From a virus (lineage: Duplodnaviria > Caudoviricetes): DNA of 50,818 nt. Position 1 is the first letter of the stretch, and each line of letters opens with the position of its first letter. The position numbers and the translations under genes are program-made. Under the pieces are notes generated by a model. That model ran no database searches. It worked only from the letters and a program-made list of their open reading frames with translations, and was not told the DNA's origin. Shown here piece after piece: positions 4,750 through 27,295 of this stretch. The DNA lies in the IMG/VR virus record IMGVR_UViG_3300032303_001830, positions 1 through 50,818 of that record. One strand, given 5' to 3'.

Positions 4750-4865
4750 CAAAAAATAAGTACCCGTGTTACAAGCGCAACATACCAGTAGCTACTCTTC
4801 TAGAAAAAATGAAAACTTGTGGGGCTAGTCATAAAAAACTGGGCGACATACCAGACATAAAAATA

Positions 4866-4895
4866 ATCCCCTTACCTGATTAGGCAAGGGGACTA
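4866..4895 (-). terminator. intrinsic terminator (representative; a similar hairpin plus U-tract follows nearly every array cassette)
   Basis: TCCCCTT..AAGGGGA hairpin flanked by A/T runs; similar hairpins near 5409, 5807, 6551, 7210, 8113, 8601, 10577, 11326, 12474. Confidence 0.75.
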
Positions 4896-4912
4896 TCTTT
4901 TTTTTTCAGCGA

Positions 4913-5257
4913 CTAACCGAAAAGCACTTCACCAAACATAGCAACCTGAACAATACAATCAGCGTCTTCTGCGTCATAATCAACATCAGTAGGGTCGCTA
5001 ATAATCTGTTGGCATACTGCTTTGGTTCTAGGGTTGATACTGACTTCACCAGTAGCAAGTTTCCTGCTTGCTTCTAGTAAGTCTTCATAGGTCAGGGTCT
5101 TTGACTTGATTTCGTCATCTAGGTATTCTTCCATAACTACCACATCATAAGTCTTGGTAGTTCTGTCGTTAGTCGCTTCACTAGCCCAGTAGCCAATGCC
5201 ACCATAACTAGCGTCTTCACATAGGTTATCAAAGAGTTCTACGAGAGTTTCGTTCAT
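4913..5257 (-). CDS. hypothetical acidic phage protein
   Basis: ORF with AAGGA RBS inside cassette. Confidence 0.7.
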   Translation of the reverse strand: MNETLVELFDNLCEDASYGGIGYWASEATNDRTTKTYDVVVMEEYLDDEIKSKTLTYEDLLEASRKLATGEVSINPRTKAVCQQIISDPTDVDYDAEDADCIVQVAMFGEVLFG

Positions 5258-5300
5258 CTTCTTATCCTTCTTCTAGGTTGAGTTGTAGCCGTGTGGCTAC

Positions 5301-5332
5301 ATAACTATCTAACCACAAGCAACCGACATTTG
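5301..5332 (-). promoter_or_regulatory. early promoter motif (representative): minus-strand AATGTC..TGTG(G/T)TTAGATAG
   Basis: Plus-strand TATCTAA(A/C)CA recurs at 5306, 6450, 8510, 9533, 10476, 11235, 11769, 12378, each just upstream of RBS and start codon. Confidence 0.7.
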
Positions 5333-5447
5333 TTCTATTTATTACAAAGTTTTTCCCTACTATTAGAGAAAATGAAAACTTTTGTTGCCCCCCATAAAAA
5401 ATAAACTAACCCCCTACATAAGCAGGGGGCTAGGTTATTAGGAGAAC

Positions 5448-5666
5448 CTAATCTTTATTAGGGGCGACCCAAGCCCAGATTAGAGCAACGACAGACAAGA
5501 GAATAAAGACCCAAGAGATTACTTCCCAGCGAGAATACATAACCAAGTCATCATCTAGGCTATACCTTACCCAAGATAGCAGATACATACCCGAAATCTT
5601 TTGAGACAGATAAGCAATAGCGACAATCGGGACTAGAACCAAAGCACGAAGAAAAAATGTCTTCAT
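5448..5666 (-). CDS. small membrane protein
   Basis: Two hydrophobic helices; GAAAGG RBS. Confidence 0.65.
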   Translation of the reverse strand: MKTFFLRALVLVPIVAIAYLSQKISGMYLLSWVRYSLDDDLVMYSRWEVISWVFILLSVVALIWAWVAPNKD

Positions 5667-5836
5667 TTGATACCTTTCATTATTAGTTGTTTGTGTTGCT
5701 ATTTAGATACTACTAAAACTTTTAGATACAACACACTATTTGTTCTATTTTTTTCTATCTATTAGAAAAAATGAAATCTTTTGTTGCCAACAATAAAAAA
5801 TAAAACTCCCCTAGCCATTTGACTAGGGGGGCTTTA

Positions 5837-6007
5837 CTATCTTCTAAAAAAGTTATAGATAGCAGTTAGGGGCTTACGCTTTTTGTGCTTACCACTTTTA
5901 GAGTAAGCCGTGTAAGCCAAGTTATGCGACTTGTGAAATACCAAGTATGAAGTTCGGCTAATCGCTCTTAGGACTTTGTAAGCGAAGTAGTAAAAAGTTT
6001 TTTTCAT
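5837..6007 (-). CDS. small basic protein (56 aa)
   Basis: Hand-translated MKKTFYYFAYKVLRAIS...; GGAG RBS; ATGA overlap with upstream gene. Confidence 0.5.
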   Translation of the reverse strand: MKKTFYYFAYKVLRAISRTSYLVFHKSHNLAYTAYSKSGKHKKRKPLTAIYNFFRR

Positions 6008-6177
6008 AGTTGCTCCCTAATAGATTTGGATTTATTTGCTAGGCGAGTTCTTGCTCTCCTATTGGACTTGTTCAGGTGAGTTCCACTAGCATTACTCCTA
6101 GAACGCTCACGAAGTAGCAGGGCTAAGATAGAACGCTCTACCCTAGCCCTAGCCTGTTCAGCCTTATTGAGTTTCAT
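6004..6177 (-). CDS. small basic protein (57 aa)
   Basis: Hand-translated MKLNKAEQARARVERSIL...; TAATG coupling. Confidence 0.5.
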   Translation of the reverse strand: MKLNKAEQARARVERSILALLLRERSRSNASGTHLNKSNRRARTRLANKSKSIREQL

Positions 6178-6407
6178 TAGGCTTCACACTCCCAGCAAGA
6201 CGGGGACACATCACCATAAAGGAAGACGCCGTGTTGGCAGAAATCGGTTTTACGCTTCTGCTCTAAGATTTCGCTCATTTGGTCAATCATAGCAAGCAAG
6301 CGTTCAGCGTTACCAGCACCGAGAGAGAGTTGGCGTTGTGCTTCTTCTATGGCATAGCCAAGAGTTTCAGCAGAGTAGTTCTTGTAAGGGTTTTCAGTTT
6401 TAGCCAT
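6177..6407 (-). CDS. hypothetical protein with C-terminal Cys/His cluster
   Basis: ORF track; first gene of cassette. Confidence 0.65.
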   Translation of the reverse strand: MAKTENPYKNYSAETLGYAIEEAQRQLSLGAGNAERLLAMIDQMSEILEQKRKTDFCQHGVFLYGDVSPSCWECEA

Positions 6408-6582
6408 TTGTAAAGTTCCAATCTGTTTGTTCGGCTTTTTGCCTATAACTATCTAAACATAAATAGACCCATTTGGCAACATTTGTCTTGTATTTTCCAT
6501 ACTATTAGAGAAAATGAAAACTTGTGAGGGTAGCAATAAAATAAAAGTTTTCCCCTAGCCCGTGTTGGACTAGGGGACACTT

Positions 6583-6831
6583 TTAGAGTATGTCGGTTAT
6601 GTCCCCGTCAAACCCGTCAAACTCCAACTCGCTAGCAAGTTCAGTTGGACTTATCTTGCCGTCTTTGTATTGCTTTATGGTCTGGTCAAACGGGAAACCA
6701 TACTTTTCAGTTAGGGGTTCTAGGGGAGTATCAAGTTCAGGTTCAGGGGCGTTTAGTTCTTGCTCCTGCTCCCAAACTTCTTGCTCCCATAGAGTAGGTT
6801 CAGGGTCTTCTGGCAGTTCCATTAGTTCCAC
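6583..6831 (-). CDS. acidic hypothetical protein
   Basis: Glu/Pro-rich; AGGAG before GTG. Confidence 0.6.
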   Translation of the reverse strand: MELMELPEDPEPTLWEQEVWEQEQELNAPEPELDTPLEPLTEKYGFPFDQTIKQYKDGKISPTELASELEFDGFDGDITDIL

Positions 6832-7064
6832 TCTCCTAATGCCTTCATAAGTTCATTAGGGGACACTTTTAGGGCTAGGCACAACTTAGCAAGTGTATCT
6901 GCTGGCAGTTGGCGTTGCTTGTGGAAATAACGGCTTAGGCTGGACTTCTGTAATCCTGTTGCGATTGCGAACTGATTTAGCGACTTGTAGCCCTGCTTAG
7001 TGTATCTAGCAACGAACCACTCCCAAGTTATTTCACTTTGAGACTTGACTTTTACTTTTGGCAT
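6822..7064 (-). CDS. XRE/Cro-family HTH protein
   Basis: SLNQFAIATGLQKSSLSRYF...LAKLCLALKVSPNELM. Confidence 0.8.
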   Translation of the reverse strand: MPKVKVKSQSEITWEWFVARYTKQGYKSLNQFAIATGLQKSSLSRYFHKQRQLPADTLAKLCLALKVSPNELMKALGEWN

Positions 7065-7240
7065 TTTATCTCCTAGTAGTTGAGTTAGGTCTTTTGACCT
7101 GTTTCCAACTTACACCATTTCCAAATGGAAAACCACCCGTGTTCTCATTTATTTTCCTATCTATTAGAAAAAATGAAAAGTTTTGTTCCTGCCAATAAAA
7201 TAAAAACTAACCCTGCTCTATCGGCAGGGCTAGTTTAGAT

Positions 7241-7402
7241 TTAGATTTCAGTTTTGAGTTTGCGAACTAGGCGAGTAATAGTTATGCGATTACTCCAAGG
7301 GACTAGACCTAAGACCATACCAATCCTAATCAAGTCAAACTCTCGGTGTAGTTGGTATCGGTCAAGTTCGGCTATTCTCTCGGGGGTTAGTTTAGTTCTC
7401 AT
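7241..7402 (-). CDS. small hypothetical protein (53 aa)
   Basis: Hand-translated MRTKLTPERIAELDRY...; GGTG upstream. Confidence 0.5.
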   Translation of the reverse strand: MRTKLTPERIAELDRYQLHREFDLIRIGMVLGLVPWSNRITITRLVRKLKTEI

Positions 7403-7556
7403 TTACATCACCACCATTAGCCTTAGTAAAGTCTGCTATTGCTCTATCTACTTCGGGGTCAAATAGCCATTGTAAAAACTCACCTATTCCCTTTTGAGTA
7501 TTCAGGTCAAACTTCGGGTTTAGGGTGTCTTGCTTAGGGTTTTCATTTTCGGTCAT
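7392..7556 (-). CDS. small hypothetical protein (54 aa)
   Basis: Hand-translated MTENENPKQDTLNPKF...; GAAAGGA RBS. Confidence 0.55.
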   Translation of the reverse strand: MTENENPKQDTLNPKFDLNTQKGIGEFLQWLFDPEVDRAIADFTKANGGDVNEN

Positions 7557-7590
7557 TTTGTTTCCTTTCACTTATTAGAACTAATAACTT

Positions 7591-7794
7591 CTAAGATTTA
7601 TTCCCGATTTTGAGATTTCTTTTGATTTTATTTTTGAGCAAGCGAACTCTAATCCTAGTTGTTCCGTGTGTTCGGCAGAACCTAGGGTGCTTACAAGGGA
7701 CAAGGGTTAGAGTTCCATTATCCTTAGGCTCTTTGAGCAACCCTAGGGCGTAGAGTTCTGCCTGTTCGGCATCTCCGTCAAGTTCTATGAACAT
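7591..7794 (-). CDS. hypothetical protein
   Basis: ORF track; TAATG coupling. Confidence 0.55.
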   Translation of the reverse strand: MFIELDGDAEQAELYALGLLKEPKDNGTLTLVPCKHPRFCRTHGTTRIRVRLLKNKIKRNLKIGNKS

Positions 7795-7970
7795 TAGAAC
7801 CCTAGGTCTGGATAGTAAGGGGTTGGGTCATAGCAGTTATCGCAATAACCAAGATTAGGACCAACCGAATAGCGTTCAGCGTCAATCAACGGATTACGCT
7901 CTGTGATTTCGGCTTCACAGCCGGGGCAGGTTTCAGGGGCAGGGGTTGAGTTGGAGTTTGTGTTTTCCAT
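7794..7970 (-). CDS. small zinc-finger protein (58 aa)
   Basis: Hand-translated, CPGC...CDNC; AAGGA RBS. Confidence 0.6.
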   Translation of the reverse strand: MENTNSNSTPAPETCPGCEAEITERNPLIDAERYSVGPNLGYCDNCYDPTPYYPDLGF

Positions 7971-8147
7971 TTTTATCCTTTGTTAGTTGGGACACTATCT
8001 ATAACCACAACTCTACTATTTTTATTCCCGATTAGTAAGCATTTTTATTTTTTATTTTCCCTATCTATTAGAAAAAATGAAAAGTTATTGAGGCGACATC
8101 TATAAAAGTAAAGACCCCCTAGACTACTAGGGGGCTTTACTAGGCGA

Positions 8148-8480
8148 CTAAGTGTTCCAGCACATCTTAGACAATCTACGCTTAGTAGCCGTGCTAATCT
8201 CGGCAGTTGCTAAGAAGTCTAGGACACTTGTTCTAGGTAATGCCCTAAGTATGCGACCAACTAGGGTGCTAGTAGTTTGAGAGATTGACCCAGTTTCCAA
8301 GAATAAGATTTTGTTAGTATCTACATCTAGGGTAAGTATGTGAGTAGCCCAATGAGTAATGGAATAAATGTTTTCCACTTTATCGGCACGGATTGAGTGA
8401 TTGTAATTGGTAAATGGTTGATAGTCAGTAATCAACCTAGGCAGTTTCCAATTAGGGGTTCTGTTATTAGCAGTAGCCAT
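8148..8480 (-). CDS. hypothetical protein
   Basis: AGGAG RBS, single-gene cassette. Confidence 0.7.
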   Translation of the reverse strand: MATANNRTPNWKLPRLITDYQPFTNYNHSIRADKVENIYSITHWATHILTLDVDTNKILFLETGSISQTTSTLVGRILRALPRTSVLDFLATAEISTATKRRLSKMCWNT

Positions 8481-8640
8481 TTGTTTATCTCCTATCGTTT
8501 GGCTATAACTATCTAAACATAGATTGGAGAGAAATTGTGGATTTTGTTTGTTCTATTAGAAAAAATGAAAAGTATTGTTGGCAACAATAAAAAAAATAAA
8601 TCCCCCCGTGTTATCGGGGGGACTTACTTCCAACTGATTA

Positions 8641-8994
8641 CTAACTAACCATTTCCAATAAGGCGTTAGTAATCATTTCCACCTGCCCATCTGTTAGGGG
8701 CATAGTTTCACCAGCGTTATCTGCTCCACCTGTGATAACTACATTGCCAACAATAACATCTGTCTTGCCATAAGACTTTTCCCAAAGGTGAGTGGCACTC
8801 TCGTTGATTGGCAGACCATACATCTTGCCTTCTTCATTGACCCAGAGAGATACGCCTTCTAGTTCTCCAACTAGGTCTATGACCTGAACATAACCCCCGA
8901 CTTGTTCTTGTAGAAATGCTAGTCCCTGATTTTCAGGCATTTCAGCCGTGTTTAGTTCGCCTGTAAAACTGATAACTAAAACTTGATTAGTCAT
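8641..8994 (-). CDS. DUF3846-like protein
   Basis: LQEQVGGYVQ, WVNEEGK..GLPIN, IVGNVVITG motifs; start moved to MTNQ after AGGAAGG. Confidence 0.75.
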   Translation of the reverse strand: MTNQVLVISFTGELNTAEMPENQGLAFLQEQVGGYVQVIDLVGELEGVSLWVNEEGKMYGLPINESATHLWEKSYGKTDVIVGNVVITGGADNAGETMPLTDGQVEMITNALLEMVS

Positions 8995-9297
8995 TTGTTG
9001 CCTTCCTATTTTTGAGTGTCTGTTGTATTTTCCAGACAATAAAAACTTATCACTATCAAGTAAAACTTTTCACGATTAGTTAGAAGTTTTCCCTATCTAT
9101 TAGAAAAAATGAAAAGTCTTTGGTCTGCCAATAAATAAAAAAGTTCCCCCCTGCCAAAAGAGAGAGAAGGCAGGGGGGAGATTTTTAGAGATTGGTAATG
9201 ATTTGGACTATCAGCATAACTAAGAATAATCCAACTGAAATACGGCAAGCAATCTCATCTTGGCGTTTAGCCTTGATTTGTTCTGGTGTTAGGCTTC

Positions 9298-9504
9298 TCA
9301 CTTGGTCTTGACCCAACGGAGAGTTGTTTGTAGCAAGTGGTCATAATCTCCACTTGTGGCTTCCTTGTAGTAAGCGTCTTGGACTTCCTTAGACAGACCT
9401 GCTACACGCATAGCCTTCATAACTCGGGCTAGGATTGAGAAGGCGTTTCCATCTTCACCAATCAACTTTACGGACTTTACTTCTGGATACTTTACATCAG
9501 CCAT
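9298..9504 (-). CDS. small conserved-type phage protein
   Basis: VKLIGEDGNAFSIL...ATSGDYDHLL; AGGAG RBS. Confidence 0.7.
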   Translation of the reverse strand: MADVKYPEVKSVKLIGEDGNAFSILARVMKAMRVAGLSKEVQDAYYKEATSGDYDHLLQTTLRWVKTK

Positions 9505-9732
9505 TTTTTATCTCCTATCTATTGGCTACATCTATCTAAACACAAGTTGCCGTGTTATGTTCCTATTTTGGAAAAGTTTTTCCTATCTATTAGAAAAAAT
9601 GAAAACTTATGAGGCTGGCAACAAGATAAAAAAGTTGGTCTAGGTAAGGGGCATAACCTAGACCAACTCAAAGACGGATTGGACACGCCTTTATTTTTGA
9701 CTTAGTGGAATAGGGACACTAAGCCAAGTTTT

Positions 9733-9900
9733 TTATTTTTTTCGTTCCCCAATAGCAACCACAATAGCACCAAGAATTAGGGTTATACCCAGATAGCCAC
9801 CAATCAAGAAGTGGATAGGATTGCCAGATGTATCGGTGTTCTCATAATACAGACCTGTAAGGATAGACATAGCACCTAACGCCATTAGTAAGTATTTCAT
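9733..9900 (-). CDS. small membrane protein (55 aa)
   Basis: Hand-translated MKYLLMALGAMSILTG...; TAATG coupling. Confidence 0.55.
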   Translation of the reverse strand: MKYLLMALGAMSILTGLYYENTDTSGNPIHFLIGGYLGITLILGAIVVAIGERKK

Positions 9901-10109
9901 TAGTTCTTACTCCCTGCGAATAGAGCAAAGGCTAGGGTTGCCAATACTCCAAACATAAGACCATTAGACCAAGCACTAGCCACGCCACCAGACCAGCCAG
10001 CACCCATAGCGTAGAGCATAGCAACTAGCAAGGTATAGACCATAGCAACGGCAGGGATAATAACTATTCCTGCTAGTAATCTACGAAATGTGTATTTGTT
10101 GATTTTCAT
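9900..10109 (-). CDS. small membrane protein
   Basis: Two hydrophobic helices. Confidence 0.65.
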   Translation of the reverse strand: MKINKYTFRRLLAGIVIIPAVAMVYTLLVAMLYAMGAGWSGGVASAWSNGLMFGVLATLAFALFAGSKN

Positions 10110-10307
10110 TTAGAGCCACCTTTTCAGTTCAGTTGGATTGTTCCAACAAGTTCAGTTTAGTATTAGCCGTGTTAGTAGAGCAACACTTTTTCCAAAGATT
10201 TTTCCTTACTATTAGAGAAAATGAAAACTCTTTATCCTGCCAATAGAATAAAGGTTCTCCCCCCTGACGACCAACCACGGAGAACAGGGGGGAGAAGTTT
10301 TTAGGGT

Positions 10308-10448
10308 CTAGTTATTATCACTAGGCTTGGTAGTAAGGTCAATGCCAATCAGTTCAGCAAGGGCGTTCAGGTTCGCTTTTGTTTGGTTCAGTTCAGCGAT
10401 TAGAGCATCAATGCGAGCAATCAGTTCATTATTCGTTTGAGTTTCCAT
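10308..10448 (-). CDS. small coiled-coil protein (46 aa)
   Basis: Hand-translated METQTNNELIARIDALIAEL...; AGGAG RBS; sole gene of its cassette. Confidence 0.65.
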   Translation of the reverse strand: METQTNNELIARIDALIAELNQTKANLNALAELIGIDLTTKPSDNN

Positions 10449-10617
10449 TTGTATCTCCTATTTGTTTGGATACTTTATCTAACCACAGACCTAGGACATT
10501 TGTTCCCCAATCCGTGTAGTTTTTTCCTATCTATTAGAAAAAATGAAAAGTTGTTAGGCTGGCAATAGATAAAAAATAGTCCCCCTGACTTTTTATCAAG
10601 GGGACTATCTTGGCAGA

Positions 10618-11205
10618 TTAGTTTAGATAGTTTTCAGCAACAAACTCAGGTGTAATCTCAAAAAACTCTTGGACTACTTCCACATAAGCATAGTCATCAT
10701 CATTCAGCCATTCTCTATAAATAGAGCCGTCATCTGCCGTATAGACCTTAGCAACTTGGCGTTGGACTAGATAAACTTCACCCTTGTAGTAAGCGTCTAT
10801 CTCCACCATAGCGTTTTTGAGTTCATCTAGCGTATAGTTTTCAGGGTTATTTATTGGATAGACAACTACTTCATTCCACTCACCTTGACTATACCCTTTT
10901 AGTTCATAAAATAAGTGAGGCACTTTATTTACGCCAGAGTTTAGGTAATCACTAATAAGACCCTTGACCTTGCCAAAGTCCCCTAAGTAGATTGCTTCAC
11001 CAATGATGTCCTGAATACCATTAGAGTATGATGAGTTAGCCGTGTATGGTCGCATTCCCCTTGCTGATTGGATTGTTTCCAAACCTATACCTTGATTACT
11101 TGCGTAAGTTTCAGTTGGTTCATACTGACCTGATACATACGCTATAACCCTAGTATTTTCATCTAGCATTAGGATTGTAGTTCCTTGCTCTTTTTCAGTT
11201 TCCAC
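10618..11205 (-). CDS. hypothetical protein
   Basis: GTG start after AGGAG; KGYSQGEW motif. Confidence 0.7.
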   Translation of the reverse strand: METEKEQGTTILMLDENTRVIAYVSGQYEPTETYASNQGIGLETIQSARGMRPYTANSSYSNGIQDIIGEAIYLGDFGKVKGLISDYLNSGVNKVPHLFYELKGYSQGEWNEVVVYPINNPENYTLDELKNAMVEIDAYYKGEVYLVQRQVAKVYTADDGSIYREWLNDDDYAYVEVVQEFFEITPEFVAENYLN

Positions 11206-11370
11206 TTTTTTCTCCTATCTAGTGTGGATACATCTATCTAAACACAAGTTATCCACTTATGCTCTTTATTTTCCTATCTATTAGAAAAAATGAAAACTTA
11301 TGGGCTTGCCAATGAAATAAAGTTTTCCCCCTAACCTTTTCAGGCTAGGGGGCTAACTTTTAGCCGTGTC

Positions 11371-11721
11371 TTACTTCTTGGACTTGTAAAGCGACACTAG
11401 AACTGAATAACGGATTTTCTTGCGAGTAGCGTTCCAGATTTTATCGCTGACCATCTCTTTTAGGATTTCGTCATCTGTTGCTTCTCTCTCACGCCAATCT
11501 CTACGCAAGACATCTATGTTTTGGTGGATTAGCAAGTTGCTACCTTCGTCAAACAAGGTATCTAACTGCTCGCTGATTTCCTTGCGTAGTTTCTCTAATC
11601 TAGCGATTTCGGCACGGACTTCGGTTAGTTGCTCAACTAGGGCTACATCTGTTTTCTTGACCTTTGTTGCCTTAGGTTCGGTGTTGCTAGTCTTTGACTT
11701 TGATTTTATTTTCGTGGTCAT
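11371..11721 (-). CDS. hypothetical coiled-coil protein
   Basis: Single-gene cassette. Confidence 0.7.
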   Translation of the reverse strand: MTTKIKSKSKTSNTEPKATKVKKTDVALVEQLTEVRAEIARLEKLRKEISEQLDTLFDEGSNLLIHQNIDVLRRDWREREATDDEILKEMVSDKIWNATRKKIRYSVLVSLYKSKK

Positions 11722-12078
11722 TTTGTCTTTCTTGTTAGTTAGGTAAGCATTTATTTCACTTACATTATTATCTAACCATAGACCTAAGACATTTGTTCCT
11801 GATTTCTTATTTATTTTCCTATCTATTAGAAAAAATGAAAACTTATGTTGTTGCCAATAAGATACAAAATAAACCCTTATTGCTAAGGGTCTATTTTTTG
11901 TTTTACTCGGTGTTGCTATAAGTTCGGTTATGGATTGGCTCTATTCCGTCAAGTAGTTTTTCACACTTTTCACAAAGTATCATAACGCTTATTTTTCGGC
12001 TCTCTTTTACCATTACAACTTTTGTTCCCAAAACCCAACTCTCGCAATACTCGCAGAGAGATTGGCTTTTCATTTTGA

Positions 12079-12348
12079 TTAGTCCCAACCATAGCAACCA
12101 CAATAAAAACTATCTGTTTCACTATTAGGGTGATAGGCAAAGAACGGCAGGGAGAGAGATGAAGCAGTTTCAGCACCACAACCATAACTACACTTAGCCT
12201 TGCGATTATCTAGGCTAGGTTGCTCATCAGCGACTTCATCAGCACCAGCGACAATACCAGAGCAGGACACACAACAAGGCTTTTCAGTTCCGTCTTTTAG
12301 GATAGTGAAACCTGTTGCCGTATGACCACATTTCATTAGTTCAGCCAT
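12079..12348 (-). CDS. Cys-rich (zinc-binding) protein
   Basis: CGH, CVSC, CSYGC, FYCGCYGWD. Confidence 0.7.
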   Translation of the reverse strand: MAELMKCGHTATGFTILKDGTEKPCCVSCSGIVAGADEVADEQPSLDNRKAKCSYGCGAETASSLSLPFFAYHPNSETDSFYCGCYGWD

Positions 12349-12521
12349 TTTTTATTTTCCTTTCGTTAGGCATACTTTATCTAAACACACTTTTCACTTT
12401 TATTGCTATTGTTCCCCATACTATTAGAAAAAATGAAAACTCGTGGTGTTGCCAATAATAAATAGATAAAAAATAGTCCCTAACTTTTTACGCTAGGGAC
12501 TACTTTTACTCGGTGAAGATT

Positions 12522-12929
12522 TTACTCGTCTTCATCTTCTTCCCGATCTTCAGGTTCGCCATCTTCGTTATCGTCATAGTCGGCACACACTCCACGACAA
12601 CTAGGGTCATTACAATCTTCACATTCTTCGTAATCCTTAGCACCTTGCTCAATCAAAGTGATAAAGCCTTCATTTTCATCTTGACCTGCTGGCACACTCT
12701 CTATGGCTTGGATAAAGCGTAGCGAGCAAGACTTCTCAAACCACTCTTTTAGGGTCGCTAACATCTGGCTAGGGGTTAGTTGCTCGCTAGTGTAGATAAG
12801 GTCGTATTCATACACTCGCATTTGCTCAACTTGCTCGGTGTCTAGTAGCACATAGATTTTGTGGCAGGTATCAAACGCAATACCCTTAGCGTCATCTAAA
12901 TACATCTCAACATTTTCCCAATCAATCAT
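12522..12929 (-). CDS. hypothetical protein with acidic tail
   Basis: FDTCHKIY..CSLRFI; D/E-rich C-terminus. Confidence 0.7.
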   Translation of the reverse strand: MIDWENVEMYLDDAKGIAFDTCHKIYVLLDTEQVEQMRVYEYDLIYTSEQLTPSQMLATLKEWFEKSCSLRFIQAIESVPAGQDENEGFITLIEQGAKDYEECEDCNDPSCRGVCADYDDNEDGEPEDREEDEDE

Positions 12930-13109
12930 CTTGACTTTTTCCTATCTATTTTCGGGGGGTGTTGCTTACATACTTACTCTAACTCTTTTCACCTAAAAAA
13001 TGTTTCCATTTTGGAAAACTTTTTTTAGTTTTTTCCTATCTATTAGAAAAAATGAAAAGTTATGAGGGTGTCAATAAAATAACTCTGCTCGGTGTTTAGC
13101 ATTTTATTT

Positions 13110-16209: not shown

Positions 16210-16728
16210 CTAGCAGATTGAGAACCCACCTGAGTTTTCCAAGAACTCTGCGAACTCTGCTATGTCGTCTAGGTCTAGGTAATAGTTGAGTTCCCAACTA
16301 TCTTTTTTACCCTCACCATTACAACCATTACACCAGCCGTGAGAACGACCTAGCAACACTCTATCCGTTTCACTTAGTTCTCTATCAGGCATACCATTTT
16401 CCAAGCCGACTTTATCAGCACGAATACCCGAGCCACTACATAGGTCGCAGTTCTCTCTTGGCAACATAGATAGATGTATGTTCCGTGCCGTTATGTAAGT
16501 GCTTGCCGTGCCGTCAGCCAAGTCTTGTCTAAGCAACTCGGCAAGTTTTAGCGAGCCGTTCTTGCCTAGTCCGTCCCCACTATTGCTGTGTCCGTGCTTG
16601 ACCTTGCCAGCAACCTTGCCGTGTCGGTCTAAGCAGTAGTCCCATAGTGGTCGCCAGCCCCAGACATTTCTGCGAAAATACGAGCCGACTTCGTTAGTCG
16701 GGTTCTTACCATAAACGTCCATACCCAT
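16210..16728 (-). CDS. hypothetical protein with DnaJ-type CxxCxGxG zinc motifs
   Basis: YFRRNVWGWRPLW; CDLCSGSG, CNGCNGEG; SGGFSIC. Confidence 0.7.
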   Translation of the reverse strand: MGMDVYGKNPTNEVGSYFRRNVWGWRPLWDYCLDRHGKVAGKVKHGHSNSGDGLGKNGSLKLAELLRQDLADGTASTYITARNIHLSMLPRENCDLCSGSGIRADKVGLENGMPDRELSETDRVLLGRSHGWCNGCNGEGKKDSWELNYYLDLDDIAEFAEFLENSGGFSIC

Positions 16729-16930
16729 TTGATTTACTCCTTATTTATCGGGTTGTAGTTTCACATTACACGCATTTTATTTTCCACGCAAGCCGTATCT
16801 AAAAAGTTTTTTGTTCTATTAGAAAAAATGAAAACTTGCTATTCCGTCAATAGTGAAAAAAGAAATCCCGACCAGCGAGAGAAATGGAGATAAAAAACGC
16901 TAGTCGGGATTTCGGTCTGTGTGCTATCCG

Positions 16931-17140
16931 TTATTCCATTTCGGTTTCAGGTTCAGCAGTTTCGGTTTCGTCAGGTTCGGCATACCCGAACTCCACTACC
17001 ATTTCGTCAATCTTGTTAGCGATTGTAAAAAATGCTTTTGAGTTTTCGGTATCCGTTTGAGCAGAATACATAAGCAGGTCAAGGAGTAGTTCCGTTTCCT
17101 TTTCCGTTAGTTTTGCTAAGGTGCTTGTGCTTGTTCCCAT
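16931..17140 (-). CDS. small acidic protein
   Basis: GAAAGGA RBS. Confidence 0.6.
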   Translation of the reverse strand: MGTSTSTLAKLTEKETELLLDLLMYSAQTDTENSKAFFTIANKIDEMVVEFGYAEPDETETAEPETEME

Positions 17141-17186
17141 TTGTGCGAGCCGTCCTTTCAGTTCAGGCTAGTTTGTTTGTTCTTAC

Positions 17187-17483
17187 CTATCTTGACACTA
17201 AATCGCTTGCCGTGTCAAGAAGTTCTTGTGCTGTATCGGGTATTGAGTATTTACTCATTACCAAGCCGACTTTGAGAATAAGGTCAGCCGTATCTACTCG
17301 CATACACTTTGCTATCTGTTCCAAGATTTCACTACTAGGGTCTTTGCTACCCCGTTCTAGTTCCCATAGATAGTTATACGAGAGATGAACCTGTCCCCTA
17401 CTAATAGTCATTTGTCTAAGGGTCAGGTTATTTTCTTTTCGGTGAGTTGCGATTACATCTGCGAGTGCTTGTCTAAATAACAT
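17187..17483 (-). CDS. XRE-family HTH regulator, ClgR-like
   Basis: LFRQALADVI..TLRQ..SYNYLWELERGSKDPSSEIL resembles actinobacterial ClgR ([20 protein letters not shown]). Confidence 0.7.
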   Translation of the reverse strand: MLFRQALADVIATHRKENNLTLRQMTISRGQVHLSYNYLWELERGSKDPSSEILEQIAKCMRVDTADLILKVGLVMSKYSIPDTAQELLDTASDLVSR

Positions 17484-17498
17484 CTGTCCGTGCCGTCC

Positions 17499-17720
17499 TT
17501 ATCTTTTGTTATACGCAGGGTGTCTAAGTTTAGCGAACGCTTTGTCGTATTCGTCCTTGCCGACTTTGTAGTAGTAGTTCTCTAAATAGATAATACCTGA
17601 TTTGAGAGCCTTAGCAACTAACTTTGAGTTAGGCAACTTCTTAGCAAGCCCCATTAGAAATACTACTCGCTTTGGCATACCAACTTCTTTGATAAAGAAA
17701 TCTCTGTAATGCTTTTCCAT
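17499..17720 (-). CDS. small basic protein
   Basis: GAAAGGA RBS. Confidence 0.65.
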   Translation of the reverse strand: MEKHYRDFFIKEVGMPKRVVFLMGLAKKLPNSKLVAKALKSGIIYLENYYYKVGKDEYDKAFAKLRHPAYNKR

Positions 17721-17917
17721 TTTCTTTTCCTTTCGGTTCTGTAAATACTATACAGAATACCTATGACATTTTGCTACTTATTTTCCGTGTTTTTCCATTT
17801 CATTAGAAAAAATGAAAACTTGTAAAAGTGCTAATAGATAAATAAAAAACGCTGACAGACTTTTACATCTGCCAGCGTTCTTAGTCGGGAAATGGTATTC
17901 AGTTATAGTGGCTCTGA

Positions 17918-18289
17918 CTAGACAACATCTACTCGTAGAGTTGGCTCACCAGCACCTTTGGCGACCTTGTAAGGCATTAGGAGTGCGTATAGTTCAGGGT
18001 TTTCCTGTTCTACACGAGCAAGGTCAATCTTTTCAGGACTAGGGATTACCTTGATTGAGATTAGACGCTTGCCCTTTGCGTCAGTTCCAATCAGGTTAGA
18101 AGTGATTGTGCCAAGAGCAGTTAGAAGTGATGAACGAGCAGTATCACTCATTTCCTTTGCTTGCTTGCCTAAATCACGACCAGCACGAATAGCCTTTGCG
18201 TGTCTTTGTAGCGTTGGTGATAACACGACAAGGGTATCGGTGGTGCTTACTGACTTTGTTTCTTTGGTGCTTGTTGTTTTAGTTGCCAT
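17918..18289 (-). CDS. hypothetical protein
   Basis: GAAAGGA RBS, single-gene cassette. Confidence 0.7.
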   Translation of the reverse strand: MATKTTSTKETKSVSTTDTLVVLSPTLQRHAKAIRAGRDLGKQAKEMSDTARSSLLTALGTITSNLIGTDAKGKRLISIKVIPSPEKIDLARVEQENPELYALLMPYKVAKGAGEPTLRVDVV

Positions 18290-18493
18290 TTGACGATTTC
18301 CTTTCAGGGTGCTTAGTCAATGGATTTGATTACCTTATGAGTAAATCACTTTTACTATCTCGTGTCAAGTCTATTTCCAAAAGTTTTTTAGATTTTTCCA
18401 TTTCATTAGAAAAAATGAAAACTTGCTGATTTGCTATCAGGTAAAAAAATAAACGCTAGCAACTTTTCACCAGCGTTTATCTTTCGTTAGAAG

Positions 18494-19282
18494 TTAGTCC
18501 AGCGTTGGATAGACACGCTTTCCTAGTTCATCTTTGACCACACAAATAGTTTCGTCCATTTGTAGTTCCAAAGTATCGGCAGTATTGTTCGCAAGTTCCC
18601 AAGCCTGTTCGGCATCTTTGGCGATTACTTTGTATGTCCGTGTAATCTCAACAAAGAACTCTTTGTTTTCTCTCGGGCAATCGTCATACCAATCTTCTTC
18701 ATCATCAGAATAGGAACACAAGCACCCGTCTTCGTTATCTCTCTCAACATAGTCAGCGTGGCTACTCGGCTCACTCCAAGACTTAGTTTCAGACAACTCG
18801 CCACTCTCACCGATAAACTCAGCACCCCAGCCTGTTTCTTCTTCACACGAAAACTCAAAAGTAAGTTTCGGGTGTTGTTCCGTCATAGCACGAAACACAG
18901 GTTCGGGAATAGACCAAGCCGTAGAGAAGTTTATGCTAACGCTAGCCGTATCAGCGTTGATAGAACTTGATACTTCCAAGCCGACTTCATTAGCGTCCCA
19001 CTTAGTATTCCAATTAGCATTATTCCACCCATACCAATTATTCGGGGTGTCCCCGAGTTGCTTGCCGTCAGCCCAGCCGTGAGTTCCAAAATACTCGCCA
19101 CTATCAACTGCGTCCTTTGGTGGTGCTACAAAGTTCCAGAACGAGAACTCGGGTTCGGTGGTCATTATGACCTTGCCGTCTATGAGGCTTTCAGGGTGTA
19201 GAGCCGTTGCTTTCGCAACGAACTCTGCCACTTCTTCCTTAGTGCCACTTACGCTGACGCTGTTATAGACCCAATTAGGCAT
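18494..19282 (-). CDS. DUF1281/YubB ferredoxin-like domain protein
   Basis: MPNWVYN, WYGWNNANWNTKWD, FSTAWSIP, HPKLTFEF motifs. Confidence 0.75.
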   Translation of the reverse strand: MPNWVYNSVSVSGTKEEVAEFVAKATALHPESLIDGKVIMTTEPEFSFWNFVAPPKDAVDSGEYFGTHGWADGKQLGDTPNNWYGWNNANWNTKWDANEVGLEVSSSINADTASVSINFSTAWSIPEPVFRAMTEQHPKLTFEFSCEEETGWGAEFIGESGELSETKSWSEPSSHADYVERDNEDGCLCSYSDDEEDWYDDCPRENKEFFVEITRTYKVIAKDAEQAWELANNTADTLELQMDETICVVKDELGKRVYPTLD

Positions 19283-19586
19283 TTAGTATCCTGTCAATGT
19301 CTTCATCAGGAACACCCTGTTCTTTGCCTGTTTTACGAACTTGCTCGGCTGTTTCCATTTTGAGCAGGACAAGCCTGTCTGTAAGTGGTGTGAAACCGAT
19401 TTTTTGAGAGATTTGGATAGCAATAGATAGAGCCTTGTAAGTGTCAGGGTCAGCGTAGCCTTGCTCTGTAAAACTCTCAACTAGCCCACCAATGATAGTC
19501 AAACTAAGAACTGCCAACGCTTTATCGTCAGCGTCATCTAGTAGTTCATTTAGGTCAGGGTGGTCGTTGCCACAATTGTCGCACAT
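19275..19586 (-). CDS. hypothetical protein
   Basis: Start MCDNCG after GAAAGGA. Confidence 0.65.
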   Translation of the reverse strand: MCDNCGNDHPDLNELLDDADDKALAVLSLTIIGGLVESFTEQGYADPDTYKALSIAIQISQKIGFTPLTDRLVLLKMETAEQVRKTGKEQGVPDEDIDRILNA

Positions 19587-19851
19587 CTTTCGTCCTTTCA
19601 TTAGAAGTAGGTGCTTACAAGAAAAGTAAAGCACAACTAACTATTCGTGTCAAGTTCATTTACAAAGTTTTTTTGTGTTTCGCAATCTATTAGAAAAAAT
19701 GAAAACTAGCAGAAGTGCTAATGATAATGAACGAACCCCTGACTACCCAGAAAGGACGGAGAGATAGTCAGGGGTTCTAATCAGTTGAGAGAGAGCATTA
19801 GGTTAGGGGGCAAGTTTCTCAATCTCTCAACTGACTTTTGTTAGCGATTAG

Positions 19852-21672
19852 TTATCTACCAATCGCAATCTTTGCTAGTGCGTCTGTTGCTGACTTACCG
19901 ATTGCCATAGCAATCTTGTCTGTTTCCATTTGGTTTAGCACCACGCCATTATTTCCAACTATGGAACTAGCACTATTGTAGCAACCCTTAGGAACAACCC
20001 ATAGAACAGCAACTCCATTTTGCTTACACATCTCTAACGCTTTCTTAGCGTTAGCAGTTTCATCACTTGTGTATTGTCCGTCAGATACGATTACGAGCAA
20101 CTTCACGCCTGATGAATAAGTTAGTCCCAAGTGTCCGTCAAGTGCGTCCCACGCCTGACCAAAGACTTCCGTGCCGTCAGGGGCAGAATAGACCGATACC
20201 TTTTCCAACTTCTGTCCGACTTTTAGGGTCGGGAACACACCCGAGCCGTAATAGACCATAGCAGTTTTAGCCTGAACCCTGCGACCACTCTCGGATAGAA
20301 CCCAAGCCGTAGTTGCCATAGCGTCCATAGCACCACCCATAGAACCTGATACATCTACCATTACTCCGATAGATAGTGTCGGGTCGTCTGTGTGTTTCCG
20401 TATGGTTCGTTCCCAAGCAGGAAGTTCTGCGAGAACACCCTTAGACTTCATAGCCAAGTTCTGAATAGCGATACGAGTTTTCAGGCGACCCTGTGGCAAT
20501 ACAGACTTTACATCTGTGATTGACCTTTCACGATACTTTGCCTTTTCCAGCATTTGAGCAATCTTTACAGCACTTGCTCTCTCGTTCCCACTCGGATTTC
20601 TTTGCTCTCTCAATACAGAACTAGAACCTGATGTTCCAACTTCGCCTGTGCCTTTACTAAACACTTTGCTCGCCTGATTTTTAGCCTTTTGGATTTCCTT
20701 TTGGCGTTCCTGCGATTTGCTTAGTTGTTCCTTTTGCTGTTCGGAAAGTTGCTGTTCATTGACTTCCTGATTAGCAGAGAGCATTGTTTCATCTGCGTCA
20801 TTGGTCAAAGCGTCAAGTAGTTCTTGTAGTTCGTCAGGGGTCATTGGACGCTTGCCCTTACCCTTACCCTTTTCACCACTCTCGCCACCTTTCCCAGACG
20901 GAAACTTACAGCCGTCAGTTTCAGTTTCAGGGTCAAGTTCATTTAGTAGGTCGTTCCAATCCTTAGCAAGTTGTTCCCCCTTAGCGACTTCGGTTTGGTC
21001 TAGTTTCTGAAACGCTACCCAGATAGCACGGAACTTATCAAAGGTTTCCTTACCAATCAGTTCTAGCACCTTGTCATAAGTAGCACGAACATCTGATAGC
21101 AACAGAACGCCACTATCAACACGAGCAAGTGATAAAGCACAAAGGAACGCAACAGCCCTAATGTGAGATAGACCTGCCAGACTTTCATTTACATCTGCGA
21201 GAGCAATCTCTAAGGCAGAACTTCTAAGGAACACAGCATTTTCAGGGTGGTTGATAACACCCAATCTCTCAATACGACTTTCATCTAGTAGAGAGAAAGT
21301 TGCGAAAACCTTTTCGTCCATAGCGTCTAATACTGATTGTTCCCACTCTGAAAATCTAGCGTGTAGAGCCTCGTGGAAAATGACACCTGTTGGAACTGCC
21401 CAATCGTATTGGACGGCTCTATCAGTTAGGTCGCCTACCAGAGCAGGTGTAGCACCTTTACCAAAAGCAACTTCTATGTTGATTTCCATTTCAGCAACAG
21501 ACTTTACATAGCAAGCAGTATGTCCCATACCTGCGTCAGTTCCAGCATAGACAACTATGTCGCCACGCTTTGCCCAAGTATTTACAATCTGCCCTATTTG
21601 AGAACAGATTTTTAGCCACTCCTTAGGGGTAGTGCTAGTGCGTGTATCTAACCTTGATACATAATGAGCCAT
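19852..21672 (-). CDS. VWA-domain protein with N-terminal HExxH metallopeptidase-like motif (CobT-like partner of AAA ATPase)
   Basis: FHEALHARFS; MIDAS DVSGSM...DGT...VSDG; start moved to MAHYV after GAAAGGA. Confidence 0.85.
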   Translation of the reverse strand: MAHYVSRLDTRTSTTPKEWLKICSQIGQIVNTWAKRGDIVVYAGTDAGMGHTACYVKSVAEMEINIEVAFGKGATPALVGDLTDRAVQYDWAVPTGVIFHEALHARFSEWEQSVLDAMDEKVFATFSLLDESRIERLGVINHPENAVFLRSSALEIALADVNESLAGLSHIRAVAFLCALSLARVDSGVLLLSDVRATYDKVLELIGKETFDKFRAIWVAFQKLDQTEVAKGEQLAKDWNDLLNELDPETETDGCKFPSGKGGESGEKGKGKGKRPMTPDELQELLDALTNDADETMLSANQEVNEQQLSEQQKEQLSKSQERQKEIQKAKNQASKVFSKGTGEVGTSGSSSVLREQRNPSGNERASAVKIAQMLEKAKYRERSITDVKSVLPQGRLKTRIAIQNLAMKSKGVLAELPAWERTIRKHTDDPTLSIGVMVDVSGSMGGAMDAMATTAWVLSESGRRVQAKTAMVYYGSGVFPTLKVGQKLEKVSVYSAPDGTEVFGQAWDALDGHLGLTYSSGVKLLVIVSDGQYTSDETANAKKALEMCKQNGVAVLWVVPKGCYNSASSIVGNNGVVLNQMETDKIAMAIGKSATDALAKIAIGR

Positions 21673-21854
21673 TTGTTTTTGTCCTTTCGTTTGGCTTACT
21701 AAAAGTGTATAGGATTTTTGGCTAGTGTCAATAGTATTTCCAAAGATTTTTTCCTGACTATTAGAAAAAATGAAAACTAGCAGAAGTGATAAAGAGAAAA
21801 GAAAAAGTGCCAAGTTTTTAGGCTTGACACTTTTCTTGTTAGTAGGACGAACTA

Positions 21855-22874
21855 CTAAATCTTTGCTGACTTACACTCTGCCCCAAAGACACGAGTGAAT
21901 ACATCAGCAACAACAGCCCTGTCCATTTCGGGTGCTGACGCAAGCAGATTGGAAACTGCCCACTCTGTCCCGAAAGTTTTGGCAACATCACGGAACGCAA
22001 GCAACTCTCGCATTTGTGGCGACCAAGATACTTCACCTGAAATCTGTTTCTTGTTTAGGTTTTGAGCAACAGATACAGCGTGAGCAGGAACACCCAACTT
22101 CTTAGCAAGTGAGTAATCAGTAGTCATTTCTGCCTGAATAACACAGCGAGATAGTAGTGCTTCGGATAGGCGAACCCCCGGTGCGTTAGGGTTTGTGGCA
22201 CAGATTACATAGAAACCCTTTTTGGCTTTGATTGTTCCCCTTTCGGCATTTGCCGTAATGGTCAGTTCATCTCTGCCGTCCATAAGACCATAGACGATAG
22301 ACATAACCTTAGGGTCAATCAGACCAACTTCGTCAATCAGTAGAACCTTACCTTGCTCTACTGCCTGTGTCAGAACTCCGTCAATCCACTCAAAAGAGCC
22401 ACTAGGGGTCTGAACATAGTTTCCAACGAAGTCAGATACTTCGGTGTCGCCTGTTCCCAAAATGGTAAGCAGGTCGTCCCCGAAACTTGCTTCGGCTAGT
22501 GCTGTCTTACCACACCCCGGCGACCCATAAAGCAAGATGAACTGATTGTTCTCTCGTGCCTTACGCAGAACCGAAATGTCGGTGTGGCTACCCCAAGCAC
22601 GAGTGTAATACTCCTGCCCATTTGGACGAGTGTATTTCTCGTCAGATGTCATACTTTCCACCACTTGCTCTACAACCTTTGCTTTTGGTTTGGTAATGCC
22701 TGTTCCAGCCTTTGCTCGTAGATTAGCACGAGCAGATGTAGGCATTAGGGTTTCCATAGTAGCAGTAATGCTTGCCACGCTAGGAAGTCCTAGTGTCTGA
22801 TTTGTGATACCTGTTAGCAGGTCTGACATCTCTGAATAGATGTCTTTGATGTTTAGTTCATCAGTTGTTGTCAT
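21855..22874 (-). CDS. MoxR/CbbQ/CobS-type AAA+ ATPase
   Basis: Walker A GSPGCGKT, Walker B LLIDE, CATNP, LSEALLSR. Confidence 0.9.
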   Translation of the reverse strand: MTTTDELNIKDIYSEMSDLLTGITNQTLGLPSVASITATMETLMPTSARANLRAKAGTGITKPKAKVVEQVVESMTSDEKYTRPNGQEYYTRAWGSHTDISVLRKARENNQFILLYGSPGCGKTALAEASFGDDLLTILGTGDTEVSDFVGNYVQTPSGSFEWIDGVLTQAVEQGKVLLIDEVGLIDPKVMSIVYGLMDGRDELTITANAERGTIKAKKGFYVICATNPNAPGVRLSEALLSRCVIQAEMTTDYSLAKKLGVPAHAVSVAQNLNKKQISGEVSWSPQMRELLAFRDVAKTFGTEWAVSNLLASAPEMDRAVVADVFTRVFGAECKSAKI

Positions 22875-22886
22875 TTTTGTTCGTCC

Positions 22887-23393
22887 TTATCTTGTATAAA
22901 CTTTGTCAGGAAAGCCAAGTGATAACCTAGCCTTTTGTATGCGTCTAAGTGCTGACGCAGGAACTTTCCACTCCTTGATGTCTGTTAGGTCTATGTTGCT
23001 CAACTCAAAGACAATAGGTGTGTTCTTACGAAGTATGGTGTAGTCGTAAGACATTTGGCGTTTTAGAAACTTCTCAATCTTTTCAGTAATAAGTTTCTGT
23101 TGTTCGTCCTTAGGCAACTTCTTTTCATCAGCAGATAGTCCCATAAGGTTTGTTCGCCATTGACTTCTAGGCGACCAAGACGAGATGTTTCTGAAAATGA
23201 CAGCAGTTTCTACTAAATTGCCCTTTTCATCTACACCAGCAGGGGTGATTAGCACCTGTGCTGTGTAGTCGTGTGATGTGTTGCTGTGTTGTAGTTCTAG
23301 GTAGATACCTTTTCCTACAACCTTTGGTTCTGACAGAGCAGTAGCGACAGCAGTTGCTACTTCTGTTTCTAATGTTCCGAACTCGGTTGTCAT
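22887..23393 (-). CDS. hypothetical protein
   Basis: Start MTTEF after AGGA; TTGACA promoter near 23472. Confidence 0.65.
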   Translation of the reverse strand: MTTEFGTLETEVATAVATALSEPKVVGKGIYLELQHSNTSHDYTAQVLITPAGVDEKGNLVETAVIFRNISSWSPRSQWRTNLMGLSADEKKLPKDEQQKLITEKIEKFLKRQMSYDYTILRKNTPIVFELSNIDLTDIKEWKVPASALRRIQKARLSLGFPDKVYTR

Positions 23394-23506
23394 TAGTTTC
23401 GTCCTACACTTTCGTTGATTTGTTATTTGTTGGTGTTCCAACATTTACTACTTTACACGAGTATTTAGTTCTGTCAAGTCTTTTTACAAAGATTTTTTAT
23501 TTTTTT

Positions 23507-23965
23507 TTACAAGAACAAAATACCAGCAAGTATAAGGTAGCCAGCGTATAGAGCAGGTGCTAGTGGAACTGACTTCACTCCAACTTTGATAAGTAGAACT
23601 AATGAAATAGGAATAGCAACAGCAATAGCAACAAAAGGAACTACTAATACAAAGAGAGATGCCCAAGATAGAGATAGCACCATAGCAGTTATCAACTTCA
23701 CATCACCCATACCAATCCAATCAAAGTAGTTGGCAACTACACCAACTATTAGATAGGCAGTAGCAAGAAGTAGTGGCATTAGTAAAGCGTTCCACCAATC
23801 AGCAGTAAGCACTACATAAGTAATAGATGTAAGTAGCCAGATAGGGAATAAAGGTAGAACTAACTTATTAGGTAGTCTGTGTTCCTTTATGTCTATTACT
23901 AATAGTGGAATAGCAATAGCGATTAGATAAGCAATAGGAATAAATAAAAGGGTTTCATTAGTCAT
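23507..23965 (-). CDS. A24 family prepilin peptidase (TadV-like aspartic peptidase)
   Basis: Polytopic; IDIKEHRLPN, GMGDVKL (both catalytic Asp), VPLAPAL. Confidence 0.85.
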   Translation of the reverse strand: MTNETLLFIPIAYLIAIAIPLLVIDIKEHRLPNKLVLPLFPIWLLTSITYVVLTADWWNALLMPLLLATAYLIVGVVANYFDWIGMGDVKLITAMVLSLSWASLFVLVVPFVAIAVAIPISLVLLIKVGVKSVPLAPALYAGYLILAGILFL

Positions 23966-24091
23966 ACCTAAAAAGGTAGCACACTTGTTTTATTGACGCA
24001 AGTGTTATTTTTCATTTTTTCGTTTTTTATTTAGATTTCGTTAGAACTTGATAAACGGGAACAGACTAGACATCAACATCAAAACTTCTAA

Positions 24092-24397
24092 CTAATCGTC
24101 AAGAGTGAAGTCATCAAAATCTTCGTGCTTATCAAACAAAGTTCCATACAACTCAACGGGTTCATTGGTATCGGGTGCTAGCACAGGGGTAGCACAATCA
24201 AGGCAAACGAACCAAGTAGTGTCCGTCTCATCAAGCACTAGCGCAAATGCGTAGAGCACTCCGTTCACATCACCGATGTTCTCTTCACACGTAGAGCAGA
24301 CCAAGCCGTTAATCTCATCACGCTCAAGCAGGCCAGACAGGCAAGCCGTCTCGACATCGCGTGCCGTTTCAATAATGTGAAGTTCAATATGTCTCAT
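24092..24397 (-). CDS. zinc-binding acidic protein
   Basis: CSTC...CLDC. Confidence 0.65.
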   Translation of the reverse strand: MRHIELHIIETARDVETACLSGLLERDEINGLVCSTCEENIGDVNGVLYAFALVLDETDTTWFVCLDCATPVLAPDTNEPVELYGTLFDKHEDFDDFTLDD

Positions 24398-27289: not shown

Positions 27290-27295
27290 TAAAAG

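Follow-up and report, generated by a model that had tools for sequence, protein, structure and literature searches.

Phages T5 and BF23 are restricted only when recognition sites lie in their first-step DNA (available sections of PMC10644984), and in Murciavirus a Type I motif matters only in the leading region (available sections of PMC12455610). For the leading regions of conjugative plasmids, the accessible part of bioRxiv 10.1101/2025.04.03.647016 describes no clear difference in 4-bp words and no systematic depletion. Here we analyze a stretch of 50,818 nt (IMG/VR record IMGVR_UViG_3300032303_001830, hereafter the window) from an uncultured lake phage of Actinobacteria. It contains a sharply bounded block of 19.4 kb that has lost the recognition sites of about 30 or more Type II enzymes. 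We conclude that first-DNA restriction avoidance takes a real, clade-wide and extreme form in this block, which lies within a long terminal repeat, and we infer an entry direction, a pause and a protective gene. A first-pass annotation of the same DNA had noticed the near-absence of 4-bp palindromes from the block and had related it to restriction avoidance, to a terminal repeat collapsed in the assembly and to first-step transfer in T5.

A sharply bounded zone without palindromic sites

The zone and the flank to its left are delimited as follows.

4,794-24,240: restriction-site-purged zone, with 39 minus-strand open reading frames (ORFs) whose median length is 89 aa
2,701-4,793: half-depleted flank, comprising a skewed non-coding stretch and two plus-strand genes, including that of a SLOG protein at 4,372-4,749

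Ten of the 16 palindromic 4-mers (AGCT, ATAT, CATG, CGCG, GCGC, GGCC, GTAC, TCGA, TGCA and TTAA) do not occur in the zone at all, counts being taken over 4,800-24,230. The remaining words are GATC (1), ACGT (1), CCGG (3), AATT (9, Markov expectation 112), TATA (33) and CTAG (122, expectation 165), and all 16 words together are observed 169 times against a Markov expectation of 1,114. The individual exceptions listed in the first-pass annotation proved exact (GATC at 12,545; ACGT at 16,715; CCGG at 7,921, 22,178 and 22,517). CTAG is indeed abundant, as had been claimed, but it is not the only spared word, as TATA is also partly spared (33 against 68 by codon shuffle).

As a control, we shuffled synonymous codons among the ORFs of the zone (200 shuffles, affecting 14,142 of 19,447 bases). 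With CTAG and TATA set aside, the remaining 14 words occur 14 times in the zone and 578±19 times in the shuffles (minimum 528), a stronger depletion than had been stated; in the flank from 30 to 50.8 kb the same words number 848, against 1,007 in the shuffles. The nearest words outside the zone are an AGCT at 4,790 on the left and a GCGC at 24,241 on the right. A change-point analysis with 37 purged motifs, which the annotation had recommended along with composition-corrected counts, places the edges at about 4,843 and 24,229.

Sites of the purged set number 111 per kb in 24,241-28,444 and 1.0 per kb in the zone. The earlier statement that these words are common outside the zone stands for the right side but only in part for the left, where eight of the 16 words are absent from 2,701-4,793 and positions 1-4,799 hold only GGCC 2, GCGC 2, CATG 3 and CGCG 3 times. 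CCGG, moreover, is rare across the whole window (outside the zone, 1 against 33).

The lost words are predominantly those of restriction enzymes

The purge extends far beyond 4-bp palindromes; odd-length, degenerate, gapped and non-palindromic Type II sites are gone too. Among those of the 617 sites of the Biopython restriction list that have an expectation of at least 5 in the zone, an observed/expected ratio (O/E) below 0.2 is found for 57 of the 81 that are palindromic and for 39 of the 313 that are not, many of the latter containing a purged shorter word. Non-palindromic words were scored conditional on their sub-words, and sites of commercial enzymes were compared with all other words. 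CCGC (0 against 47.5 expected) and CCTC (9 against 79.5) stand out in this analysis. Depleted 4-mers comprise two of seven commercial sites and none of 113 other words (p=0.003), and depleted 5-mers two of 14 and two of 395, respectively (p=0.006); the same test finds no depleted non-palindromic words in the flank. The association with enzyme sites is repeated in five relatives (G006, G007, G009, G002 and G008), with p values as low as 1e-11 at certain lengths, some of the depleted 6-mers being expansions of degenerate palindromes; the 4-mers of four of these five carry no such signal.

GGATG, a non-palindromic Type II site, is among the purged words, as is the gapped GAAN4TTC (0 against 12 expected). 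CA-N6-TG is absent as well (51 expected), while CA-N7-TG occurs 67 times against 73 expected. Asymmetric bipartite words resembling Type I sites were considered and rejected, because the strongest gapped matches collapse to the symmetric CA-N6-TG, GAAN4TTC and CCAN5-6TGG. ATAT, CA-N6-TG and CAGTC are purged though missing from the Biopython list, and these words predict host specificities not yet listed; CTAG is in the list, yet spared.

These counts bear on the simplest alternative, that base composition, avoidance of hairpins or an assembly artefact produced the zone. The zone does contain many A/T-rich spacers, but its GC content (0.41) equals that of the flanks and the depletion survives codon-preserving shuffles. 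Non-palindromic sites are lost whereas CTAG and long terminator hairpins are kept, which excludes hairpin avoidance, and the pattern recurs in 26 lineages from separate assemblies. We consider the chance that such an explanation is correct negligible.

The purge reaches into protein sequences

Seventeen dipeptides cannot be encoded without creating a purged site; for example, Ala-Ala requires GCNGC, Val-Thr requires GTNAC, Phe-Lys requires TTAA or TTCAA, and Asp-Met requires ATAT or CATG. These forced dipeptides occur four times in the 39 zone proteins, compared with 137±11 in shuffles, and 249 times in 43 proteins outside the zone, where 240 are expected. Two adjacent genes are informative in this respect.

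21,855-22,874, minus strand: MoxR/CobS-like AAA+ ATPase, carrying two of the three surviving CCGG words
19,852-21,672, minus strand: VWA-domain partner of the AAA+ ATPase (weak match to PF05762), with a homolog in DSL-LC01, a metagenome-assembled Actinomycetia phage

Each of the three surviving CCGG words encodes Pro-Gly, and one of the two in the ATPase lies in the P-loop, GSPGCGKT. Counted over eleven of the forced pairs, orthologs of the AAA+ and VWA proteins hold 0-9 in the 12 records that bear a zone, compared with 38 and 44, respectively, in G004 and DSL-LC01, which lack one. The expulsion of pairs such as Ala-Ala, Val-Thr, Thr-Val and Phe-Lys from 39 proteins is a clear example from nature of protein sequence being shaped by defence.

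The cause named in the first-pass annotation is thus supported by the codon shuffles, the site vocabulary, the gapped sites, the P-loop CCGG and the loss of dipeptides, and restriction avoidance in early-exposed repeat DNA is very likely what shaped the zone. One could suppose instead that the target was host methylation, early DNA shedding methyl marks that in the next host would silence promoters or attract methyl-directed (Type IV) nucleases. All counts fit this equally well, since methyltransferases recognise the same sites, and ATAT, CAN6TG and CAGTC are purged although they lie outside the restriction list. However, loss throughout coding sequence, at a cost in amino acids, goes beyond what effects on promoters would need, and early unprotected exposure would still be required. 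We therefore regard methylation as an improbable target.

The zone lies within a predicted long direct terminal repeat

The following features define the predicted repeat and its site-rich end.

4,810-28,444: predicted direct terminal repeat of about 23.6 kb, collapsed in the assembly, based on synteny with the Microbacterium phages Pumpernickel and Cece, the right limit being bracketed by depth
24,241-28,444: the roughly 4.2 kb of the predicted repeat that are rich in sites
26,438-27,289, minus strand: endolysin (CHAP), site-rich
27,459-28,382, minus strand: site-rich homolog (36-42%) of the gene 1 with which Pumpernickel, Cece and their kin begin at their physical left end
28,471-28,515, minus strand: conserved hairpin that has CCTCTCCCC as its loop and lies 113 bp upstream of gene 1, near the predicted left end of the repeat

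Gene 1 is present twice in each of Pumpernickel, Cece and their kin. The direct repeats of Pumpernickel (19,963 bp) and Cece (18,079 bp) span gene 1, the endolysin and a small-gene array homologous to that of the window; their starts lie about 62 bp ahead of gene 1, and their ends about 60 bp short of the stop codon of the first gene on the opposite strand. Carried over to the window by synteny, these limits fall at about 28,444 and 4,810, the latter within 50 bp of the left purge edge.

Contig depth supports a collapsed repeat. In run X1 the length-weighted depth is 14.6 over 9.7-21.8 kb (7 pieces) and 7.9 over 31-46 kb (8 pieces), and in run X2 it is 14.2 (3 pieces) and 7.6 (6 pieces), a ratio of 1.86 in both, where depths are flat per-contig means from the longest pieces among those listed and the stretches start to the right of 9 kb, so that the left repeat limit lies outside them. 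X1 is possibly the window's own sample and X2 comes from a different strain of the same study; runs X3 and X6, which cover one stretch only, were left out of the ratio. Two contigs that span 24.2 kb have depths of 14.4 and 13.0, compared with an expected 10.0 for a step at 24,240 and 13.6-13.9 for a step at 28,440. This rules out a terminus at 24.2 kb and places the right limit of the repeat at about 28.4-29.7 kb, the zone being only part of it. The suggestion that the block belongs to a long terminal repeat collapsed in the assembly is thereby supported, by the doubled depth in two runs and by homologous repeats of 18-20 kb, while the position proposed for the repeat's end is not. Contig ends bunch 0.5-1.2 kb upstream of gene 1 in 14 of the 35 loci that end within 10 kb, many of which are near-copies.

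Enrichment of sites in the gene 1-endolysin stretch, as if they served as decoys, was considered and rejected, since most words there are close to their Markov expectation. The hairpin upstream of gene 1 has a stem of 14-17 bp that varies freely in sequence and a conserved loop; 58 of 80 loci, which were selected on the motif for alignment, have the exact loop at most 350 bp upstream of gene 1. Its stems contain 68 G-U and 3 A-C pairs in 32 copies, and this excess suggests that it is the coding strand that folds, either as RNA or as a single strand. The hairpin has no match in Rfam and is a candidate operator or terminus-generation signal.

The zone is a cassette array that recurs within one clade

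The zone is a unidirectional, minus-strand array of cassettes, whose repeated and bounding elements are these.

4,797-21,775, minus strand: 25 direct copies of the cassette-boundary motif TTTCATTTTTTCTAATAG, with a terminator-like hairpin before and the promoter-like/Shine-Dalgarno region of the next cassette after
24,010-24,021, plus strand: the one copy of the motif core that is inverted, some 210 bp within the right purge edge and just upstream of the first promoter-like site
24,092-24,397, minus strand: Cys-rich ORF of 101 aa; the purge edge lies in or just past it in nine of the ten genomes having it

Every copy of TTTCATTTTTTCTAATAG, from 4,814 to 21,775, follows a terminator-like hairpin and lies about 70-130 bp ahead of a start codon, and the last copy abuts the left purge edge. 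Terminator-like sites are enriched in the zone (30 against 15.9±4.5). The strains in runs X2 and X4 are without 14,208-14,601 and share 20 letters at the joint, which indicates that cassettes are exchanged through the motif.

In order to see how widely the zone is distributed, we compared loci carrying gene 1 (the best 80 of 112), retaining those with at least 9 kb downstream and a distinct gene-1 protein and adding six other records. The resulting 49 rows comprise 11 strong zones, 15 partial ones and 23 without a drop in site density. All 26 zone-bearing lineages belong to one branch of 28 rows (support 88 in a quick tree). The gene 1 homolog of G004 (G004:C1:11204-12079) has one TGA inside the match.

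The zones of the 11 genomes examined in detail measure 13.2-30.6 kb, and at the gene-1-side edge the density falls from 29-140 to 0-3 purged sites per kb. This edge lies 83-363 bp from the start of the homolog of the Cys-rich ORF in nine of ten genomes and 987 bp from it in one. Each lineage purges a set of its own, comprising 10-37 of the 53 motifs that were tested (TCGA and AATT are retained by G002 and G005), and the cassette motif likewise differs between lineages. The near-complete records G001, G007, G008 and G010 have one zone each. The window, G006 and G009 have an inverted motif copy 178-233 bp inside the edge; in G008 the first copy is direct. Some words are missing genome-wide: AGCT (0/518), GATC (0/271) and TCGA (0/137) in G001, GATC in G007 (0/267), GATC (0/347) and CCGG (1/206) in G010, and, throughout 10,001-60,000 of DSL-LC01, ATAT (0/42) and TTAA (0/35).

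Order of DNA entry

Overall, the zone is probably the distal 19.4 kb of a direct terminal repeat of about 24 kb, which is exposed early and unmodified and faces host restriction. Sites would be lost only where a cut is fatal and not yet preventable, the block being exposed unmodified to host enzymes while its own early genes are expressed. The end near 4.8 kb would be the physical end of the genome and would enter first, and entry would pause near 24.0-24.2 kb, about 200 bp past the first early promoter and the inverted motif. Restriction would then be blunted, or the DNA shielded, by a product of the block, and the DNA that keeps its sites, comprising the lysis gene, gene 1 and the unique part of the genome, would enter afterwards.

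We give entry from the 4.8-kb end, with a pause, roughly an even chance. Three considerations favor it: the genes point at the entering end, as the first genes of T5 do, and each cassette has its own terminator and promoter; the distal purge edge matches the predicted physical end; and gene 1 is annotated, in Cece only, as the small terminase subunit, the end that is packaged first usually being the last to leave. The inverted motif about 200 bp inside the edge is a candidate stop signal for ejection. A bolder and rather doubtful extension is that this clade evolved a two-step entry independently of T5, an orientation-specific motif halting ejection after 13-31 kb and one early protein neutralising dozens of Type II systems, so that the missing words would form an enzyme catalogue of uncultured lake Actinobacteria that includes ATAT, CA-N6-TG and CAGTC.

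The same selection could also act if the gene-1 end entered first. The first 4 kb (gene 1 and the endolysin) would then be a disposable leader with a second copy arriving last, and intactness would be needed only from just before the first early promoter. This order would fit an edge that lies 60-300 bp before the first promoter-like site and at no fixed codon (offsets of 83-363 bp in the gene), a purge that is cleanest on the gene-1 side in most genomes, the half-depleted flank at 2.7-4.8 kb in the window, and transcription directed away from the gene-1 end. On the other hand, a margin of 200 bp would be a weak shield against exonucleases at a cut end, and the distal edge is abrupt in G006, G007, G008 and G012. 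Cassette turnover, furthermore, can explain the gradient in site density, as residual sites are bunched in single cassettes (in the window, AATT at 8,405-8,533 and 19,012-19,574). We regard entry from the gene-1 end as possible but on the unlikely side; both directions share the core claim of restriction avoidance in early-exposed repeat DNA.

Several observations, together with the limits of the depth data given above, weigh against early exposure of a repeat that enters from the 4.8-kb end. Run X4, the third to cover both stretches, has short pieces with depths of 4.6-6.2 against 3.3-9.7 and no clear step. The cleanest fifth of the zone is one of the two nearest gene 1 in nine of 11 genomes, and site density rises toward the distal end in most of the 11. 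A consensus promoter scan of the zone shows no enrichment (24 against 36.1±6.5). A fold model of gene 1 (predicted local distance difference test score 69) has no convincing match in viral and PDB libraries. No recognised anti-restriction protein was found among the zone genes by PADLOC/NCBIfam, domain and fold searches, and the idea of DNA mimics was rejected because the zone shows no enrichment in acidic proteins (p=0.62). The host is probably an actinobacterium, as suggested by WhiB and the relatives of the phage. Among the runs listed as containing the DNA, those with labels are freshwater and none is an RNA run; a search for the host through phage contigs or WhiB among genome contigs gave no match. 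Finally, for seven lake Actinobacteria genomes the accessible part of PMC6329791 (Table 2) reports neither methylated motifs nor methyltransferases. With streamlined lake Actinobacteria reported to carry few methylation systems, the large number of specificities behind the purge is a puzzle.

Genes of the zone and its surroundings

The other annotated genes of the zone are listed from right to left.

23,507-23,965, minus strand: Peptidase A24-family membrane protein (PF01478)
22,887-23,444, minus strand: conserved protein, no informative match
18,494-19,282, minus strand: DUF1281_C ferredoxin-like protein
17,187-17,483, minus strand: XRE/ClgR-like helix-turn-helix (HTH) regulator
14,755-15,156, minus strand: conserved phage protein with a confident model, its structural neighbours all being uncharacterised phage proteins
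13,110-13,658, minus strand: HNH endonuclease
8,641-8,994, minus strand: DUF3846 protein
6,822-7,064, minus strand: Cro/C1-type HTH protein

The search for a broad anti-restriction factor is narrowed by these data to about 40 small genes. The A24 prepilin-peptidase-like gene is the first behind the first promoter in the window and lies mid-array in G006, G009 and G011. The predicted fold of the product of 14,755-15,156 has no match among solved structures.

The HNH gene in the zone could be taken to indicate self-avoidance, in which a phage nuclease would degrade the DNA of the host at a time when no more than the early block has entered, as has been proposed for T5 A1 (available part of bioRxiv 10.1101/866236). 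Nevertheless, a single nuclease cannot cover more than 30 unrelated specificities that differ between lineages, and no homolog of T5 A1, A2 or dmp is present: 11 T5 pre-early proteins, including these three, gave no tblastn hit at E<=0.01 in the window and 13 other phage records, T5 excluded. Self-avoidance is thus very unlikely.

Outside the zone, among glycosyltransferase genes, are a Mom-family gene (39,761-40,390) and a CcrM-like adenine methyltransferase gene (43,544-44,302). The latter is skipped in one contig of run X4, and 34,821-36,310 is missing in X2 and X4. A tRNA-Asn, a manA RNA (46,198-46,378) and a tmRNA with the tag AERTSAFALAA follow one another at 46,071-47,236. To the left of the zone, a non-coding stretch of 1.3 kb (2,520-3,800) has strong A/C skew and short repeats such as ACCGCAGACA, and is a possible origin or packaging region; three 32-nt tandem copies lie at 4,157-4,252.

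Comparison with known systems

We found no description of such a zone in an actinophage in the literature searched, which was covered in part and without supplements; likewise, no such zone appears in the available parts of PMC10611076, PMC6802176, PMC6286503, 10.1101/866236 and 10.64898/2026.10.15.759504.

Close relatives in gene order are Pumpernickel and Cece, members of cluster GD. They have gene 1, the endolysin and the small-gene array, followed by an HTH gene, terminase and portal; in the window the latter two would lie past its end, yet they follow in G006, G007 and G009. Unlike in the window, the ATPase gene of Pumpernickel and Cece is outside the repeat. DSL-LC01 likewise has gene 1, endolysin, HTH, terminase and portal in this order, and shares gene 1 (65%) and the AAA ATPase (67%) with the window. 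None of the three has a local purge.

Conjugative plasmids resemble this system in that their first-entering DNA, the leading region, is also thought to face restriction. In Murciavirus and the T7-like Autographiviridae a single Type I motif and short repeats are involved, whereas dozens of Type II sites over 19 kb are affected here.

T5 and BF23 also have a long direct terminal repeat with small early genes, and the first genes of T5 point toward the entering end. The analogy drawn in the first-pass annotation holds qualitatively but not in degree. In bases 1-9,700 of T5 none of the 16 palindromic 4-mers has an O/E below 0.2 and the overall ratio is 0.83, compared with 14 of 16 and 0.15 in the zone; for 6-bp palindromes the ratios are 0.80 and 0.03, and only GGNCC and CCWGG are low in T5 first-step DNA. 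Here, unlike in T5, the block consists of 25 cassettes that all point the same way, and about 4 kb of the repeat stays site-rich, so that the purge is smaller than the whole repeat. The qualitative rule known from T5 becomes in this clade an extreme and measurable genomic signature, so that in uncultured phages the sequence alone suffices to map the DNA that is exposed first, together with its edges.

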